Shown here piece after piece: positions 18,620 through 59,331 of a stretch of 64,000 nt of DNA. The DNA lies in IMG/VR virus record IMGVR_UViG_3300022723_000207, positions 89,185 to 153,184 of that record; one strand, given 5' to 3'. How positions within the stretch are numbered: the first letter of the stretch is position 1; every line of letters begins with the position of its first letter. Below the pieces are notes generated by a model. The model worked only from the letters and a program-made list of their open reading frames with translations. It had not been told where the DNA came from and searched no databases. A program made the position numbers and the translations under genes. The DNA is from a virus.

Positions 18620-18776
18620 GATTTGCAACAAAGCAAAATCAGGAACTTGAGCGTTAATTCCGATAATTAGCTCTCTGGTAGAGCAATTGCATGCAAAGCA
18701 ATGGGTACAGGTTCAATTCCTGTATTATCACCAAAATTTAACCCTCGTCTATCCTGATTTTACTTTGTTGCAAATC
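18620..18776 (+). ncRNA. scaffold ncRNA unit 2 with embedded unpermuted tRNA-like module (GCA loop)
   Basis: ~24-bp terminal stem enclosing a cloverleaf at 18662-18733 with a 6-bp acceptor stem. Confidence 0.8.
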
Positions 18777-18777
18777 A

Positions 18778-18956
18778 ATTGAATGATAAGTATTAGGATT
18801 AGGAACTTCTGCGTTAATTCCGCATCGGTAAACACAACTGACTTTAATCAGTTCACTGTAGGTTCGAATCCTACCTCCCCCACCATATGGGGGAGTGGTG
18901 AAAATCACGCACTACTTAACCCGGTACTCTCCTAGTCCTAATACTTACCATTCAAT
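18778..18956 (+). ncRNA. scaffold ncRNA unit 3 with tRNA module circularly permuted in the D-loop
   Basis: order is 3' D strand, anticodon arm, T arm, closed acceptor CTCCCCCA-CCATA-TGGGGGAG, 5' D strand; long terminal stem. Confidence 0.8.
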
Positions 18957-19095
18957 CTCTGGAACTTTTGCGTTAATCCCGATCTTGCATACGGAGCCGG
19001 ATGCGTAGGTTCGATTCCTACTTCCCCCACCACTGGGGGAATAGCTCAGCGGTAGAGCGCCGTCGATCATAACTTAACCCATATCCATCCAGAGA
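18956..19095 (+). ncRNA. scaffold ncRNA unit 4 with tRNA module permuted at the anticodon (YrlA-like topology)
   Basis: T arm GTAGGTTCGATTCCTAC, closed acceptor TTCCCCCA-CCAC-TGGGGGAA, then D arm GCTCAGCGGTAGAGC. Confidence 0.8.
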
Positions 19096-19103
19096 CTTTT
19101 GCT

Positions 19104-19144
19104 CCCCATCAGACTTGCCGACAGGCCCTGGTGGGGTTATTTTT
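19104..19144 (+). terminator. putative intrinsic terminator after the ncRNA array
   Basis: CCCCATCAG/CTGGTGGGG stem with large loop, followed by TTATTTTT. Confidence 0.5.
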
Positions 19145-19154
19145 GGTAGCTTGA

Positions 19155-21837: not shown

Positions 21838-21866
21838 TTGACAATTCGGAACGATTCCGATAAAAT
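21838..21866 (+). promoter_or_regulatory. sigma70 promoter
   Basis: TTGACA-17bp-TAAAAT. Confidence 0.85.
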
Positions 21867-21877
21867 ATAGGGCAGAC

Positions 21878-22000
21878 ATGAACTCACACCCATTACTTAT
21901 GGAAGCCACGATGGCGACAGCAGAACAAGCAGTCGAGCGATTCGACGTGTTTGGATGGGACTGCGGTATTAAGACCGATCCAGACCCAGGTGGCACCTAA
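21878..22000 (+). CDS. putative attenuator leader peptide, 40 aa (MNSHPLLMEATMATAEQAVERFDVFGWDCGIKTDPDPGGT)
   Basis: starts just after the promoter; 3' end overlaps the antiterminator arm; D/E/G codons match downstream tRNAs. Confidence 0.65.
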   Translation: MNSHPLLMEATMATAEQAVERFDVFGWDCGIKTDPDPGGT

Positions 22001-22026
22001 GAGTTCAGTATAATCAAGAACCTCTT

Positions 22027-22068
22027 AAGAGCCCCTGGGAACTAAAAAGCCCAGGGGCTCTTGCTTTT
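22027..22068 (+). terminator. attenuator terminator hairpin
   Basis: AAGAGCCCCTGGG/CCCAGGGGCTCTT 13-bp stem then GCTTTT; competing pairing 21985-22006 with 22018-22039. Confidence 0.7.
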
Positions 22069-22107
22069 GGTACCCTTTGACAATTTTATAGATGTGGATT
22101 AACACTT

Positions 22108-22185
22108 GGCCCTTTAGCTCAGACGGTCTAGAGCACTTGCTTGTCACGCAAGAGGTCGCGGGTTCGATCCCCGCAAGGGTCGCCA
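22108..22185 (+). tRNA. tRNA-Asp(GTC)
   Basis: cloverleaf, loop TTGTCAC, CCA. Confidence 0.93.
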
Positions 22186-22189
22186 AACT

Positions 22190-22217
22190 AAGTCCCCCAC
22201 TTCGGTGGGGGACTTTT
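22190..22217 (+). terminator. intrinsic terminator-like hairpin within the tRNA cluster
   Basis: AAGTCCCCCAC-TTCG-GTGGGGGACTTTT. Confidence 0.75.
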
Positions 22218-22219
22218 AT

Positions 22220-22291
22220 GCTCCCATGGTCTAGTGGTTATGACGACAGATTTTCAATCTGTAAACAGGAGTTCAATTCTCCTTGGGAGTA
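22220..22291 (+). tRNA. tRNA-Glu(TTC)
   Basis: cloverleaf, loop TTTTCAA, no encoded CCA. Confidence 0.9.
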
Positions 22292-22390
22292 CTAGAATAT
22301 GCACCGACCCTCGCTAAAGAGGGAAGTCTCCTAGGGTTCGCGGCCTATAATGGGGGCTTCGGGTGGGGTAGAACCATCTCGGTGCTCTAT

Positions 22391-22465
22391 GCAGATATGG
22401 TGATAATGGTAGCACGTCGCCTTGCCAAGGCGAGGGCGCGGGTTCGATTCCCGCTATCTGCTCCA
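22391..22465 (+). tRNA. tRNA-Gly(GCC)
   Basis: cloverleaf, loop TTGCCAA, U73, CCA. Confidence 0.93.
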
Positions 22466-30259: not shown

Positions 30260-30460
30260 ATGCCAATGTACAAGATTACTGTGGATAAATGTGGAATGCC
30301 CAGTGTTGATTTTACTGAAGTGTTTTATAAAGAAGCCAAGGATTTTGAATCAGCTATTAATGGCGTTGATGAAATTAAGTCAGTTGAAGAAATTGGTCAA
30401 TCTTGGAATGAGTTTGTGAGAAACCAGATTCCAAAGCATTTGGTTCATACTAAAAAGTAG
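30260..30460 (+). CDS. hypothetical protein
   Basis: GGAGG SD before MPMYKI. Confidence 0.55.
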   Translation: MPMYKITVDKCGMPSVDFTEVFYKEAKDFESAINGVDEIKSVEEIGQSWNEFVRNQIPKHLVHTKK

Positions 30461-37487: not shown

Positions 37488-37549
37488 TAAAATATACCTT
37501 ACGTTGCCCATAACGGGCTTCTCTTTGACAATCGAAAGGAGGAGGAACC

Positions 37550-37846
37550 ATGAGTACCATGGAACGTAAGTCGCCACGTATAGGTGATACTGTCATTTAC
37601 CATGACAAGCACGGGAAAGCGCACAATGCGTTAGTGAAGATTTCCTGGGATCAGGGTGGTCAGATCGAAGACCCTTGCGTTAATTTGGTATATGTCAGTG
37701 ATGACGCAAAAAGGGAAGATGGCGCAGGCCGTCAGACCATTGTAGAAACTAGCATAGTTCATGGATCAAACCAGACTGCGCACGGTTTTTACTGGAGAAG
37801 GGTTGATGAAGATCCTAATCCATACGTTAAGCCTAGTGACGACTAA
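37550..37846 (+). CDS. hypothetical protein
   Basis: strong SD AGGAGGAGG. Confidence 0.7.
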   Translation: MSTMERKSPRIGDTVIYHDKHGKAHNALVKISWDQGGQIEDPCVNLVYVSDDAKREDGAGRQTIVETSIVHGSNQTAHGFYWRRVDEDPNPYVKPSDD

Positions 37847-38302: not shown

Positions 38303-38359
38303 TTCTTTGACAATATGGGGGCGACATGGCTTCGACAGGCTGTGGAACCTAGTGTGAGC
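38301..38359 (+). repeat. 59-bp exact copy of the tmRNA leader and 5' end (38902-38960)
   Basis: direct sequence identity. Confidence 0.95.
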
Positions 38360-38482: not shown

Positions 38483-38854
38483 ATGCCGCTAAATGATAAT
38501 CAGTTTGATGATGCTTTGAACAGAAGAAGACCAGTTAATAATGGGGTGACGCTTGTTGTTAAGTCTCCTATGTTTGATCCTTATGGTGAAGATTGGACAG
38601 AACAATATTTTGATGGTGATGGTGAATTAGCCGATAGGATTGAAAAGCAAGTGCACCAGATCATCCAATCTGAAACTGGATGTAAATATGTGTTTAATGA
38701 TGATGCTGAAGAATTTACATATAGTTGTCCATCAATGGAAGCTTCAAAGATGTTGCTTAGAATGCTGGAAACAGCCGCTTCTGAAAGGCCAGATGATCAA
38801 ACCGATCTGTTTATGGCTTTGATGGCTAATGATATGACCTATGAATACGAATGA
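38483..38854 (+). CDS. hypothetical protein (MPLNDNQFDDALN...)
   Basis: GGAG SD; N-terminus shared with 37922. Confidence 0.6.
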   Translation: MPLNDNQFDDALNRRRPVNNGVTLVVKSPMFDPYGEDWTEQYFDGDGELADRIEKQVHQIIQSETGCKYVFNDDAEEFTYSCPSMEASKMLLRMLETAASERPDDQTDLFMALMANDMTYEYE

Positions 38855-38917
38855 AAGATGGATGGAAATTAATAAAAATAATTAGGCAATTCTAAGGAAA
38901 CAGTTCTTTGACAATAT

Positions 38918-39264
38918 GGGGGCGACATGGCTTCGACAGGCTGTGGAACCTAGTGTGAGCCTTGAGATGGTGCGGGAGGCCATCTAAAAACCCGCAAAAG
39001 AATAAATGCCGACGATCACGTCAGCTATGCTCCTGTCGCTGTAGCGGCTTGAGCGACGGTTCGTGGACTCCGTTAAAGCAAACCGAACAGCAACGGATGC
39101 TTCTTTAGTGTAATCGTCAGCTAAAGATTAAGATTGAACGATCGTGGTGTTAACGCCTTCGTAATGGTGTTAATAGGTTGCTGGTGTCCGAATACGCCAG
39201 ATATTCAAGGTAGAGCGCACAGGCGCAAGCAGTTTGGACGCGGGTTCGAACCCCGCCGCCTCCA
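38918..39264 (+). ncRNA. ssrA: tmRNA; tag ADDHVSYAPVAVAA at 39008-39052
   Basis: 5' GGGGGCGAC..TTCGAC; 3' GGACGCGGGTTCGAACCCCGCCGCCTCCA with G3:U70; tag ends in AA. Confidence 0.95.
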
Positions 39265-40643: not shown

Positions 40644-40716
40644 TCTTTTTGACCCCCGTTAGTATTTAAATCTAGCGGGGTTGACAACTGATTGACCATG
40701 TATACCATAACATACT

Positions 40717-40801
40717 ATGCAAGGTAATGGCATAAAACTGTCGAAATGGGTCGGCAAAGAATCGGGCGAAGCGAGCGCTGGAGGCGGTGAGTGAAGATTA
40801 G
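40717..40801 (+). pseudogene. tnpA: IS607 serine recombinase remnant
   Basis: N-terminal IKLSKW joined to C-terminal SAKNRAKRALEAVSED* in another frame. Confidence 0.6.
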
Positions 40802-41873
40802 CCGATCATCCAAGTGCTCTCTCAAGTTCACGACAGCATCAAAGTTGTCGAAACTGGGCACCGTACTCAACGAGTACGGTCGAGTAGTTAATGCCTTCAT
40901 CGACCAGTTCTGGATTGAATGCCCAGCCAAGGGCAAGTTACTCAAACCTGTGGTTGATTCGGTCGATAGTTGGTTCACCGCCCGTCTCCGTAAGGTTGCT
41001 GCTCGTGAAGCCATCGACATGGTGAAGGCAGCAAAGGAGCGTTGGGGCGATAAGGCAGTAACGCCTACCCATCGTGGGCAACGGATGTGCGTCAGCAGTA
41101 CCATTGCTCGACTGGACGCCAGTAAAGACAGTTCTTTCGACTGCTGGTTGCATCTGTCGTCCATCGGCAATGGCATCATCCTCGATCTGCCGATTAAACG
41201 GCACAAGCACTTCAACGATCTGGCTACTGTCGGTCGTAAGCAAGAGTCTTACATTATCACCAGGGATTCCGTGCAGTTCTGCTTCGAGATCGAAACTGGT
41301 CCGAAGCAAGAACCAGATCGCTGTGTCGGTGTTGATACTGGAATCAACGCCTTAGCCAGTTTGTCCACTGGCGATCAACTGGGTACGGATATCAAGGTTG
41401 GTATCGAACGAATCAAACGCTGCAAACACGGCTCTAAAGGTCAGAAACGGGCCGTTCGTGCTTTAAGGCAGCGAATGGATGAAGTTGCTAAAGAGGTTGT
41501 TGATAAATCCTCGTTAGTGGTTGCTGAGAACCTAAAGAACATCACGAAGAATACCAAACGCCGCTTGGGTAAAAATATGCGGCGCTCTATCGGTAGATGG
41601 AATGTCCGGTATTGGTTAGAGACTCTTCAACGGAAATGCGAATATCACCGTGTGAGTTTTCGCTCCGTGAGTCCCTACAAAACCAGCCAGACCTGTTCAT
41701 CCTGCGGCCATGTCGATAGGAGGAATCGAACCGGTGAGTTGTTCCGTTGTCTCAGTTGTGGCTATGAGGCAAACGCAGATGTGCAGGCATCACGGAACAT
41801 CCTTACCCGATTCCTTACCGGGCCCTACGGTGCCGGTTGCAAACCTCTTGTGTCTTATAATGGGATACTTTGA
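40791..41873 (+). CDS. tnpB: RNA-guided endonuclease TnpB
   Basis: RuvC GVDTG, VAENL, NADVQASRNI; Zn finger TSQTCSSCG..FRCLSCG. Confidence 0.93.
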   Translation: MKISRSSKCSLKFTTASKLSKLGTVLNEYGRVVNAFIDQFWIECPAKGKLLKPVVDSVDSWFTARLRKVAAREAIDMVKAAKERWGDKAVTPTHRGQRMCVSSTIARLDASKDSSFDCWLHLSSIGNGIILDLPIKRHKHFNDLATVGRKQESYIITRDSVQFCFEIETGPKQEPDRCVGVDTGINALASLSTGDQLGTDIKVGIERIKRCKHGSKGQKRAVRALRQRMDEVAKEVVDKSSLVVAENLKNITKNTKRRLGKNMRRSIGRWNVRYWLETLQRKCEYHRVSFRSVSPYKTSQTCSSCGHVDRRNRTGELFRCLSCGYEANADVQASRNILTRFLTGPYGAGCKPLVSYNGIL

Positions 41874-42569: not shown

Positions 42570-43124
42570 ATGCTTTTTAGAGTTGATGGAAATATCACAA
42601 TTAGAGCAGATCGATATTGTTTTATGGTGTGTCAAGATAAAGGCATGACTAAATTTCCTAAGGGTATTATGGCTCCTTATCACAAGCCATTAAAATTTTG
42701 TGGCTATTTTCATGAAATGGTTCGATCAATTGAAGCGGAAGCTGCTAAGGTAAGCGATGAGATCTCTAATATCATGCGTGAAGAGTTTCAAATGCGCAGT
42801 TCTCTTAATGCATTTGATGGGTCTTTTGATAAATATTCAATAGTTGGAACTGATATCAGATTTGATAAAGATTGCTATATTAATAAATTCGCTTCGTATA
42901 CGACTTATAATAGGTCTCCTGGCCATTCTCTTTTCAGTGCATGGACTCAACATTTGCGGGAGCATCCGCGTTTTGGATCGGCTGAAAAAGACTACAATTT
43001 ATGTGAGCCTTCAGAAATTGCTAAGGCTATGCAGGAGTTCAAGGAACAAGTTGCTAAAGATCACGGTGTTGATTTTTCTACTGAAGTTAAAATTCCAAAA
43101 CACCTCTGCTTAGAAGAATCTTGA
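42570..43124 (+). CDS. hypothetical protein
   Basis: AGGAG SD. Confidence 0.6.
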   Translation: MLFRVDGNITIRADRYCFMVCQDKGMTKFPKGIMAPYHKPLKFCGYFHEMVRSIEAEAAKVSDEISNIMREEFQMRSSLNAFDGSFDKYSIVGTDIRFDKDCYINKFASYTTYNRSPGHSLFSAWTQHLREHPRFGSAEKDYNLCEPSEIAKAMQEFKEQVAKDHGVDFSTEVKIPKHLCLEES

Positions 43125-43148
43125 CAGCGGATTCTTGGATGTTATAGT
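43121..43148 (+). promoter_or_regulatory. sigma70 promoter (extended -10)
   Basis: TTGACA-16bp-TATAGT with TG at -15/-14. Confidence 0.75.
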
Positions 43149-43156
43149 ATTATCCG

Positions 43157-43207
43157 ATGAACACTTTCCAACAACACCAGCACCAGACAGGAACCAAGAG
43201 CGCTTAG
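43157..43207 (+). CDS. attenuator leader peptide MNTFQQHQHQTGTKSA
   Basis: six consecutive Gln/His codons CAA CAA CAC CAG CAC CAG upstream of tRNA-Gln/Gln/His. Confidence 0.8.
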   Translation: MNTFQQHQHQTGTKSA

Positions 43208-43236
43208 GCTTTTTGGACGGTGTTGCGTTATCTCGT

Positions 43237-43273
43237 GAGCCCCCGAAGCCTAGGTTTCGGGGGCTCTGCTCTT
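43237..43273 (+). terminator. attenuator terminator hairpin
   Basis: GAGCCCCCGAAGC-CTAG-GTTTCGGGGGCTC then TGCTCTT. Confidence 0.7.
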
Positions 43274-43300
43274 GGTATACTCTTTGACAATCTAAATTAA

Positions 43301-43376
43301 TGCCCTATAGCACAATTGGCTAGTGCGTCGGTTTCTGGCACCGATAGTTTAGGTTCGAATCCTAATAGGGCATCCA
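43301..43376 (+). tRNA. tRNA-Gln(CTG)
   Basis: loop TTCTGGC, CCA. Confidence 0.92.
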
Positions 43377-43377
43377 C

Positions 43378-43448
43378 TGGGGCATAGTATAAGGGTAGTA
43401 CAGAACATTTTGGCTGTTCTAGTCGAGGTTCGAATCCTCGTGCCCCAA
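43378..43448 (+). tRNA. tRNA-Gln(TTG)
   Basis: loop TTTTGGC. Confidence 0.9.
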
Positions 43449-43452
43449 ATAT

Positions 43453-43529
43453 GGTCTCGTTGGTGTTAGTGGTTAGCACACAAGATTGTGGTTCTTGAGG
43501 GACGAGTTCGAATCTCGTACGAGACCCCA
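43453..43529 (+). tRNA. tRNA-His(GTG)
   Basis: G-1:C73, loop TTGTGGT, CCA. Confidence 0.93.
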
Positions 43530-43651
43530 TGTTTAATTAGCTAATCTTAGGCTTGTTTGCCCCAAATATGGTAAGGGCGATATATGCTATAAGTGTGTTA
43601 TGAATAGACTAGACCTTTGATCGCTCTATAAATGCGCAGGAGATTCTTATT

Positions 43652-44221
43652 ATGTCTACTAGTGATGTTCCCGGTGCCAAAGACGCCAACAATGACGAAT
43701 TGGCGATGGGTTGTTGGGCTGAACATGATGATGGTTCTTTATTAGTGGTTCATTCCACTGAAAATGATGAAGTCATCTATTCAATGTTCGATACGAGTAA
43801 GACCCCGCCTGTAGAGTTCAGGGACAAAATGCCAATGGATGATTTTAAGGCATATTTCTCTTGGAATGGTAACAATGTTAAATGGACATGGCATGACAAG
43901 ACCCCGTTTCCATGGGATCGAATCATTAAGAGCGGCATTCGAGATGGGGTTTTGCCTGCTCCTAGTGGTCATGATCAAATCGCTGAGGCTAAAAGCGTCG
44001 CAGAGTCGTTGGCTGAAAAGATGGGTATCCCTGGTCATGAGATTGATTCCGATAAGGTCGATCACATGATGAGCAAAGAATCGCCACGCAAGATGATTTC
44101 TAATATTCAAGAAGCGGTTGATTCTTGCCCGAAAGGCAAGAAGGGCAAGAAAAAGATTAAAAAATTGCTTAAGAAGCAAAAGAAAATCCAGAAGAAGATT
44201 GAAGCTGAGATGGCGGGTTGA
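43652..44221 (+). CDS. hypothetical protein with Lys-rich C-terminus
   Basis: AGGAG SD. Confidence 0.7.
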   Translation: MSTSDVPGAKDANNDELAMGCWAEHDDGSLLVVHSTENDEVIYSMFDTSKTPPVEFRDKMPMDDFKAYFSWNGNNVKWTWHDKTPFPWDRIIKSGIRDGVLPAPSGHDQIAEAKSVAESLAEKMGIPGHEIDSDKVDHMMSKESPRKMISNIQEAVDSCPKGKKGKKKIKKLLKKQKKIQKKIEAEMAG

Positions 44222-57702: not shown

Positions 57703-59331
57703 TTAAATGATCCCATGATCTGATAATATACTTTTAATATCACCAATTTGTTTATATGATATCCTTATTAGATTTATGCTATTTATTAGACAGAATTTGT
57801 TCTTGATTAAATCTCTGCGTTGTGCTCTTTCGAATGCTTCACTACCACCAAATATATCAACTGGTTGGAAATGCTGGATCCCATCAAACTCTATTATTGT
57901 ATTACAATCATTTAAATAAAAATCGAATTTTAGGCGGTGCCTGTCCTTACACTTATCGAATGACTTTTGTGTTTCAAAATTTATTTGGTGTTTTTCTAAT
58001 ATCGACCTTACTTCCCTTTCCCCTCTGCTTTCTAAGCATTTTGGGCATCCTGATCCCCTTAGATGGTGCGTTGGTGATTGATTGAAATCACCGTGTTCTT
58101 TGCATGTTATTGTTACTTTCTTGACTCTATCATGATACTCGACTTTAGAATAGTCATAGCAATCACCATGAGTTTTAGTTGATTTCTTGATAAATTCTTC
58201 TGTGTTACTTCTTAGTTTGGATGTAACATTTGATGCAGCACAAAATGGACATCCTAATGATTTTAAATGGTCGCTTGGTTTTTGTTTAAATTCTCCGTGT
58301 TTTGGGCATACTATTGTTACTGGTGTCTTGTTATTAATATAATTGGTTTTGGAATAATCGTACTTGTTATTGTGAATAGATGATGCTTGGTGTATAAACT
58401 GTGAGAGTGATTTTTTAATCGGCTTGTTACAGTTTTTGCATCCATGTCCTTGAAGGTGTGAGAATGGAGTTATTAAGAAATCTCCATGGGTCTTGCATGT
58501 TATGATTGTTTTGGTTCTGGTATTTTTATATGAAGATTTTGAATAATCATACTTGTTGCTGTGAATGCGATTTGCTTTTTTGATGAATTCTTCTAACTTC
58601 AGTGGATTTAAAGAACATTTTGAACAGCCATGCCCAGAATAATGTGAATATGGTGTTTGCCAGAATGATCCGTGTGTCGGACATATTATTTCAACTTTTG
58701 TTCTGTTATTTTTATAATGAACCTTTGAATAGCTATACTTGCCGTTATGGGCTGCGTTAGACTTCTTGATAAATGCTGATGTTTTATTGTCGTATGTTGG
58801 TTCTTTTGATGCTTGTTGTATTTTGAGTATTTTGTGTTTTTGAATGAGCCATCTAATTGAGTCGCAGGATACTCCGTATTTTTGGGATATTTTGGATATG
58901 CTAAGGTCCAGATCAGTGTATAGATGTTGTATCATATTTTTAAATTCAAATTCGTTTTTAAATCCACATTTTAAATGTAATGGATTTCGTGTATTAATGC
59001 CTAAATCATTGCATAATCTCATTACCGTATGTCTGCTACATCTTAATATTTTAGCTATCTCAGATTGTGATTTGTTTTCTTTATAAGACCATTTTATTAG
59101 TGATGTGGCTAGGTCTTCCAGTGATTTGAAGCCATATAAGTTAACGTATTTAGAGGGATTTTTGTCGACTGTGATACTATGTTTCTTGAATAATCTTGAA
59201 ACTGTGGGCCTGCTACACTGTAGTTTTTTAGCTATTTCGGATAGCGGCAACTTTTGTTGGTGGTGGAGGAATCTTAAATAGCTTTCGATTTCGTTATCTA
59301 ACATCTGAGAGTATAATTTTACTGTTTGCAT
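57703..59331 (-). CDS. free-standing homing endonuclease: HTH repeats, four Zn-finger repeats, PD-(D/E)XK domain
   Basis: repeated YDYSK..IxCxxHGxF..GCxxC; SRGE, FDFYL, IEFDGIQHF. Confidence 0.85.
   Translation of the reverse strand: MQTVKLYSQMLDNEIESYLRFLHHQQKLPLSEIAKKLQCSRPTVSRLFKKHSITVDKNPSKYVNLYGFKSLEDLATSLIKWSYKENKSQSEIAKILRCSRHTVMRLCNDLGINTRNPLHLKCGFKNEFEFKNMIQHLYTDLDLSISKISQKYGVSCDSIRWLIQKHKILKIQQASKEPTYDNKTSAFIKKSNAAHNGKYSYSKVHYKNNRTKVEIICPTHGSFWQTPYSHYSGHGCSKCSLNPLKLEEFIKKANRIHSNKYDYSKSSYKNTRTKTIITCKTHGDFLITPFSHLQGHGCKNCNKPIKKSLSQFIHQASSIHNNKYDYSKTNYINNKTPVTIVCPKHGEFKQKPSDHLKSLGCPFCAASNVTSKLRSNTEEFIKKSTKTHGDCYDYSKVEYHDRVKKVTITCKEHGDFNQSPTHHLRGSGCPKCLESRGEREVRSILEKHQINFETQKSFDKCKDRHRLKFDFYLNDCNTIIEFDGIQHFQPVDIFGGSEAFERAQRRDLIKNKFCLINSINLIRISYKQIGDIKSILSDHGII

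Follow-up and report, generated by a model that had tools for sequence, protein, structure and literature searches.

A candidate leader-peptide attenuator ahead of glutamine and histidine tRNA genes in a phage contig

In the enterobacterial attenuators hisL, trpL, pheL, thrL and ilvL, a short open reading frame (ORF) lies close to the promoter, contains a run of control codons and ends with a stop codon adjoining region 2 of the leader RNA, in which the pairings 1:2, 2:3 and 3:4 compete and a stalled ribosome favours the antiterminator. Some of these leaders, such as thrL (Thr/Ile) and ilvL (Ile/Leu/Val), sample more than one amino acid. In the pheM leader attenuator of the pheST operon, which encodes Phe-tRNA synthetase, codons of one amino acid control a gene of its own decoding apparatus. 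A similar arrangement, considered here, was found in a stretch of 64,000 nucleotides (nt) of the IMG/VR virus record IMGVR_UViG_3300022723_000207 (hereafter, the window), at a site named locus A, directly before three transfer RNA (tRNA) genes for glutamine (Gln) and histidine (His). On balance, we favour the reading that a ribosome-mediated leader-peptide attenuator heads this phage tRNA operon, gates it according to how fast the operon's own codons are decoded and is followed by a Nus-type boxA-like element.

Locus A shares with the enterobacterial attenuators the promoter-proximal ORF, the control-codon run, the stop codon next to region 2, the competing pairings and the sampling of more than one amino acid. 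It differs from them in its targets, which are three tRNA genes reading the control codons and not biosynthesis or synthetase genes, as well as in the lack of a Shine-Dalgarno sequence, the weak U-tract, the boxA-like element that follows and its location in a phage. The pheM-pheST case differs in the same respect, because its target is a synthetase protein and the operon is cellular. The tRNA-Phe genes of Escherichia coli, pheU and pheV, were checked for an attenuator and have none: each promoter directly adjoins its tRNA, without a leader ORF.

Other known systems are similar in part. Leaderless polycysteine short ORFs act as Cys-responsive attenuators in mycobacteria (10.1101/834739). Like them, the ORF at locus A would be a sensing ORF at the transcript 5′ end (here a predicted one), has no Shine-Dalgarno sequence and would use runs of one codon type to gate downstream genes, whereas the host group and the targets (cysteine metabolism in mycobacteria) are different, and leaderless translation, common in mycobacteria, is putative in the host of this phage. 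T-box riboswitches also respond to how much of a specific charged tRNA is available, as proposed here, and use a terminator/antiterminator switch, but they bind tRNA directly through a specifier codon without translation, whereas locus A contains six tandem codons in an ORF. Finally, a hairpin followed by a BoxA-like sequence ahead of untranslated RNA genes is reminiscent of rrn leaders and lambda nut sites, from which locus A differs in that the 5′ GC of boxA is not conserved, boxC is lacking and the hairpins differ between copies, one of them being a canonical terminator. No Rfam match to a T-box or to an amino-acid leader (His, Trp, Thr, Leu) was obtained at E ≤ 1 in window 38-46 kb, in window 17.8-22.6 kb or in L046. 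In full-text literature searches, which were not exhaustive, no published attenuator of tRNA operons or of phage tRNA genes was found; this agrees with the statement of the first-pass annotation of the window, made from the sequence alone, that no codon-matched attenuator was known for phage tRNA genes.

The elements of locus A and of a second copy, locus B, are collected in Table 1. The locus A promoter, with its extended -10 element, scores 11/12, is the top site in 40-46 kb and is one of two sites with this score on the plus strand of the window. Judging from promoter spacing, we infer a transcript start at 43155-43157. Just 8 nt separate the -10 hexamer from the ATG, which is placed either at this predicted 5′ end or 1-2 nt away; its position without a Shine-Dalgarno sequence was not remarked in the first-pass annotation. 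The codon run of the ORF contains the exact Watson-Crick codon of each of the three downstream anticodons twice, and CAT is absent from it. Both His codons are CAC, though in the genes of the phage 70% of the His codons are CAT. Shuffling of the 145-nt leader never produced six Gln/His codons in a row (0/20,000), and an ORF as enriched in Gln/His appeared once in 20,000. The three tRNA genes of locus A are the only Gln and His tRNAs of the whole 153-kb record. Read-through of the leader stop codon was also considered and rejected: TAG closes 20 of the 101 long frames in the genome.

Table 1. Features of loci A and B in the window (positions are those of the window)
Feature	Position	Strand	Details
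Locus A, sigma70-type promoter	43121-43148	+	-35 TTGACA 43121-43126, 16-nt spacer, extended -10 TGnTATAGT 43140-43148
Locus A, leader ORF, 16 codons, MNTFQQHQHQTGTKSA	43157-43207	+	ATG 43157, TAG 43205-43207; between promoter and first tRNA (43301)
Locus A, control codons CAA CAA CAC CAG CAC CAG	43169-43186	+	six consecutive Gln/His codons
Locus A, region 1, ACCAAGAGC	43193-43201	+	pairs with region 2 in ribosome-free RNA; alternatively with 43268-43276 in the full transcript
Locus A, region 2, stop codon and next bases, UAGGCUUUUUGGACGG	43205-43220	+	antiterminator 5′ strand
Locus A, regions 3:4, 13-bp GC-rich hairpin, candidate terminator	43237-43266	+	free energy -26.2 kcal/mol
Locus A, U-poor tail TGCTCTTGGTATA	43267-43279	+	TGCTYTTGGTA common to locus B
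Locus A, boxA-like element CTCTTTGACAAT	43280-43291	+	after hairpin tail, before tRNA-Gln(CTG)
Locus A, tRNA-Gln(CTG)	43301-43376	+	ARAGORN and Rfam
Locus A, tRNA-Gln(TTG)	43378-43448	+	ARAGORN and Rfam
Locus A, tRNA-His(GTG)	43454-43529	+	ARAGORN and Rfam
Locus B, promoter TTGACA-17-TAAAAT	21838-21866	+	promoter scan
Locus B, leader ORF, 40 codons	21878-22000	+	starts MNSH, ends DPDPGGT
Locus B, antiterminator	21985-22039	+	overlaps 13-bp hairpin 22027-22062
Locus B, boxA-like element CCCTTTGACAAT	22073-22084	+	preceded by tail TGCTTTTGGTA
Locus B, tRNA-Asp(GTC), tRNA-Glu(TTC), tRNA-Gly(GCC)	22108-22465	+	

Ribosome positions were modelled in silico by masking the ribosome footprint in RNA folds. 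With the mask placed over the Gln/His run, 11 of 13 bases in the hairpin 5′ arm were engaged by region 2 (43205-43220; -16.6 kcal/mol). When the ribosome was masked at the stop codon, region 2 was covered, the 5′ arm was left unpaired by it and the hairpin formed. Without a ribosome, region 1 paired with region 2, the 5′ end paired with 43217-43229, and the hairpin formed as well. Pairing 1:2 (43196-43201 with 43208-43213) and pairing 2:3 (43205-43212 with 43245-43252) were both seen in constrained minimum-energy folds. As modelled, the folds reproduce the logic of the trp operon, including the predicted termination when the leader is untranslated. The first-pass annotation had proposed an attenuator of the trp/his type composed of a sigma70 promoter, a 16-residue ORF with this codon run, these alternative pairings, a 13-bp 3:4 stem, a boxA-like site and three tRNA genes matching the control codons. 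All these elements were found again at the positions given there, and the codon run, the masked-ribosome folds and the recurrence in this window and in other phages support the proposed type of control.

Locus B, situated in the same window before Asp, Glu and Gly tRNA genes, has a leader ORF that opens with ATGAAC, as does that of locus A. This leader contains four Asp (three of them GAC), three Glu and four Gly codons, and every Asp and Gly codon is found in its final 18 codons; the share of GAC among its Asp codons is 3/4 versus 25% in the genome. None of 1000 shuffles equalled or bettered the locus B antiterminator, and the masked-ribosome folds behave as at locus A.

A third leader was found in LR756511.1, a 595-kb uncultured phage reached through its capsid protein (43% capsid identity), on the minus strand at about 437.5 kb. 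The promoter TTGACA-16-TGgTAAAGT is followed there by a 5′ hairpin and by the ORF MHTFSASLRLSSYSLSSLLYSNVRRGT, which has an AGGA Shine-Dalgarno sequence before its GTG start. Twelve consecutive Ser/Leu/Tyr codons are present in this ORF (0/20,000 shuffles), all six Ser codons are included in the leader, and each of its Ser, Leu and Tyr codons has a cognate phage tRNA downstream. The leader hairpin is a canonical intrinsic terminator (d'Aubenton-Carafa score d = +40.6), after which come the boxA-like TCTTTGACAAT and the genes of tRNA-Ser(GCT, GGA, CGA, TGA), tRNA-Leu(GAG) and two copies of tRNA-Tyr(GTA), with tRNA-Leu(TAG, CAG, CAA, TAA) further downstream. The antiterminator of this leader was equalled or bettered by 14/1000 shuffles. 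A second promoter of like type, TTGACA-N13-CGTGGTAAAGT, is located on the minus strand of the same genome at about 278,030-278,150, upstream of tRNA-Met at 278,024; a GTG 6 nt past its -10 hexamer opens MTFAKEKFKKKKNFS, and tRNAs for Lys and Phe are encoded farther downstream on this strand. The MTFAKEKFKKKKNFS leader was not counted, because its Lys codons coincide with an A-rich hairpin loop.

The fourth leader belongs to Xanthomonas phage XacN1 (AP018399.1), where MNKPYYKRYYAKA is situated 93 nt before tRNA-Lys(CTT), tRNA-Lys(TTT) and tRNA-Tyr(GTA). Just upstream of this Lys/Tyr leader, an unannotated tRNA-like gene with a long insert was noticed at positions 683-790 of L170 (AP018399.1 ~30,282-30,389; Rfam tRNA, E = 2.4e-9). 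Suppressor-type tRNAs with the anticodons CTA or TTA occur in XacN1, in LR756511.1 and in RAS14, a more distant capsid relative.

A survey of phage tRNA clusters, as suggested in the first-pass annotation, took in nine phage records with 200 cluster heads, and all short ORFs preceding these heads were scored. The four leaders occupy ranks 1-4 with p = 1.9e-5, 3.4e-5, 1.3e-4 and 7e-3, the next best ORF having 1e-2. In a replication test from which the discovery case was removed, 2 hits at p ≤ 1e-4 were obtained versus 0.15 expected (44/5000 random assignments). The stop codons of all four leaders are located 93-107 nt before the first tRNA. Alignment from the stop codon to the tRNA shows one colinear order of parts at locus A, locus B and the LR756511.1 locus, namely about 27 nt, a hairpin, a U-containing tail, YCTTTGACAAT and the tRNA; their hairpins are unrelated in sequence.

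If the attenuator reading is right, host RNA polymerase would start at about 43156 from the strong sigma70 promoter, and ribosomes would translate the 16-codon ORF without a leader or nearly so, given its place at or beside the 5′ end. With charged tRNA-Gln and tRNA-His in plentiful supply, the ribosome would reach the UAG at 43205 and cover region 2, so that the hairpin 43237-43266 could form and part of the polymerases would stop at about 43267-43280. When CAA, CAC or CAG is decoded slowly, the ribosome would stall at 43169-43186 and mask region 1, and region 2 (43205-43220) would then pair with the hairpin 5′ arm and loop (43237-43252). The hairpin being blocked, the polymerase would enter the genes of tRNA-Gln(CTG), tRNA-Gln(TTG) and tRNA-His(GTG), and since these tRNAs read exactly the control codons, a negative feedback loop would be closed. 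The element CTCTTTGACAAT (43280-43291) would then probably load Nus factors and shield the untranslated tRNA transcript from Rho.

A number of observations weigh against this scheme, and its least secure steps are termination at the weak U-tract and translation of an ORF devoid of a Shine-Dalgarno sequence. The weak U-tract, already pointed out in the first-pass annotation, is reflected at locus A in the tail UGCUCUUGGU, with a tail score of 1.57 and d = -4.0. At locus B, d is -25 (about +4 by a hand estimate with the stem trimmed), and the tail is U-poor. These weak U-tracts suggest partial or factor-assisted termination. No Shine-Dalgarno sequence was found before the ORF of locus A or that of locus B, and the 5′ untranslated stretch predicted for locus A measures 0-2 nt and that for locus B 3-6 nt; translation would therefore depend on inefficient initiation of the leaderless type. 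The antiterminator of locus A was equalled or bettered by 53/1000 shuffles, which is marginal (p about 0.05), and this antiterminator falls short of the hairpin in stability by about 10 kcal/mol, so that, as in trp, the switch would be kinetic. Taken alone, the Asp/Glu/Gly enrichment of the locus B leader does not reach significance (11/39, binomial p = 0.18), and a simple scan revealed neither a promoter nor a terminator at the XacN1 leader. Capsid relatives at 70-83% identity (G007, G008, G013, G009, G030, G023, G025-G027) contain no convincing leader, nor does RAS14, and the element must therefore be regarded as sporadic and not as a clade-wide trait. The searched collections contained no close relative of locus A.

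Other searches around the locus were also negative. Relatives of the downstream protein were found in five IMG/VR contigs, with no tRNAs or motif nearby in any of them. The upstream protein has no relative among 5.8 billion proteins, and no relatives were found for two other proteins of the tRNA region. Pattern scans of IMG/VR and metagenomes for the hairpin tail and boxA gave only chance matches inside coding regions, a search with the back-translated leader peptide gave no match, and blastn against cultured phages gave matches to tRNA bodies only.

The boxA-like motif, which reads CUCUUUGACAAU as RNA, allows another explanation, namely that the locus is only a Nus antitermination leader of the rrn type, in which the hairpin is boxB-like, CTCTTTGACAAT serves as boxA to give Rho resistance over the tRNA genes, and the ORF is incidental and untranslated. 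We regard this as rather unlikely. It agrees with the distribution of YYCTTTGRCAAT, of which there are six copies in 153 kb, all on the plus strand and all in the RNA-gene region: before tRNA-Thr (18432), at locus B, before an ORF (37521), at both tmRNA (transfer-messenger RNA) 5′ ends (38303, 38904) and at locus A. The two copies at the tmRNA 5′ ends directly adjoin the tmRNA, with no hairpin there. The locus A sequence ACTCTTTGACA agrees at 9 of 11 positions, and the tmRNA copies at 10 of 11, with the gamma-proteobacterial BoxA consensus GYTCTTTAANA (PMC5725501). At the position that deviates, the Aquifex BoxA, GGCUCCUUGGCA (PMC3177189), likewise has G. The motif precedes tRNAs in LR756511.1 and in G030 too, and it is missing from most of the 30 capsid-related records. 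The weak U-tract and the missing Shine-Dalgarno sequence would likewise fit a Nus leader. On the other hand, NusB-NusE recognise 8 nt of BoxA, with NusB contacting the 5′ bases (PMC3177189), and it is the first three positions that vary among the phage copies; the 5′ GC is not conserved, and the invariant part is the 3′ UUUGACAAU. No GU-rich element of the boxC type was found downstream of the locus A motif, which is separated from the tRNA by CTAAATTAA only. Moreover, such a leader would explain neither the Gln/His run nor the 12-codon run of LR756511.1 nor the Lys/Tyr leader of XacN1, and the LR756511.1 hairpin is a canonical intrinsic terminator. We read the motif as a putative Nus-factor loading site past the decision point, and as a module added to the attenuator and not an alternative to it.

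The interpretation of the motif as a second promoter or as a T4 MotA box was rejected, as no copy has a -10 element at workable spacing. The exact CTCTTTGACAAT at 37521 lies 17 nt before the strong Shine-Dalgarno sequence and ATG of a protein gene (37550-37846) and not before an RNA gene. The two tmRNA-associated copies are parts of an exact 57-nt duplication (38303-38359 and 38904-38960), which comprises the boxA-like TTCTTTGACAAT and the first 43 nt of the tmRNA and flanks an ORF at 38483-38854. The first copy diverges beyond this length, a pattern that would suit an insertion by which the tmRNA 5′ end was split or copied.

We consider it quite improbable that tRNA dosage is set without any sensing, by a hairpin acting as a constitutive leaky terminator or as a processing or stability structure, with the ORF never translated. 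The absence of a Shine-Dalgarno sequence is compatible with this explanation, and in the full-length fold of locus A (z = -4.3) the hairpin is enclosed by a 9-bp outer helix of 43193-43201 with 43268-43276, which could be a processing stem of the RNase III type. This outer helix is not conserved at locus B, and the match between codons and tRNAs at four loci in three phages would be left unexplained. Finally, a coincidence or low-complexity DNA picked from a 64-kb read is very improbable, since, although CAN repeats are simple sequence and a cruder composition-only permutation gives no more than moderate significance (4 hits at p ≤ 3e-4 versus 0.69 expected; 9/2000), the codon runs were not reproduced by shuffling at two independent loci, the Gln/His run is in frame with an ATG sited at the start point of the promoter, the four best leaders share the stop-to-tRNA distance and three of them share the colinear hairpin, tail and boxA-like motif.

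The window is the terminal 64 kb of the 153-kb contig; the GC content of the contig is 40% and its completeness about 42% according to CheckV, and the giant phage carries a T4-type gp23 capsid gene. The 24 tRNA genes and the tmRNA are all on the plus strand and confined to window 18.4-43.5 kb. No terminator was found after tRNA-His, and the attenuator may therefore also gate the ORF at 43652-44221 and later genes. The 13-mer GCCCCAAATATGG, which comprises the tRNA-Gln(TTG) 3′ end and the spacer (43442-43454), appears again at 43559-43571, 30 nt past tRNA-His, and is possibly a scar of tRNA duplication. Within the tRNA region, a TnpB / Cas12f-like ORF is present at 40791-41873 on the plus strand (Pfam Cas12f1-like_TNB, E = 3.8e-18; OrfB_IS605 weak), with a promoter-like site at 40681. 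The interval between tRNA-Cys and tRNA-Met (18733-19154) contains tRNA-like fragments and permuted-looking pieces, and a weak Rfam match to YrlA (Y RNA-like) was obtained at 19004-19058 (E = 0.0015). On the minus strand, positions 57706-59331 encode a 542-residue protein with tandem helix-turn-helix or sigma70 region-4-like domains and zinc-ribbon-like parts.

Attenuation is classic for amino-acid genes, and what would be new here is that tRNA genes are the target. To our knowledge, the control that phages exert over the tRNA genes they carry is largely unknown. Why phages carry tRNAs at all is debated: one view is codon compensation, the other that phage tRNAs replace those removed by host shut-off or by tRNA-cleaving defences (PMC10264068, PMC11464382). 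We tentatively consider it possible that the tRNA operons of certain giant phages are self-correcting supply circuits, in which a tiny ORF written in the codons of their own tRNAs would raise transcription only when those isoacceptors are short, for example, due to host tRNA decay or tRNA-cleaving defence nucleases, while a Nus-type boxA would protect the transcript. Such a codon-resolved decoding sensor might serve as a counter-defence, and host anticodon nucleases as its trigger are a matter of speculation. One apparent member of this group is found in the cultured phage XacN1, which infects Xanthomonas citri. If the attenuator reading is true, the element of about 180 nt would be a compact, portable and codon-specific sensor providing direct feedback from decoding speed to the transcription of tRNA genes, and a textbook mechanism would be extended to a new class of targets.

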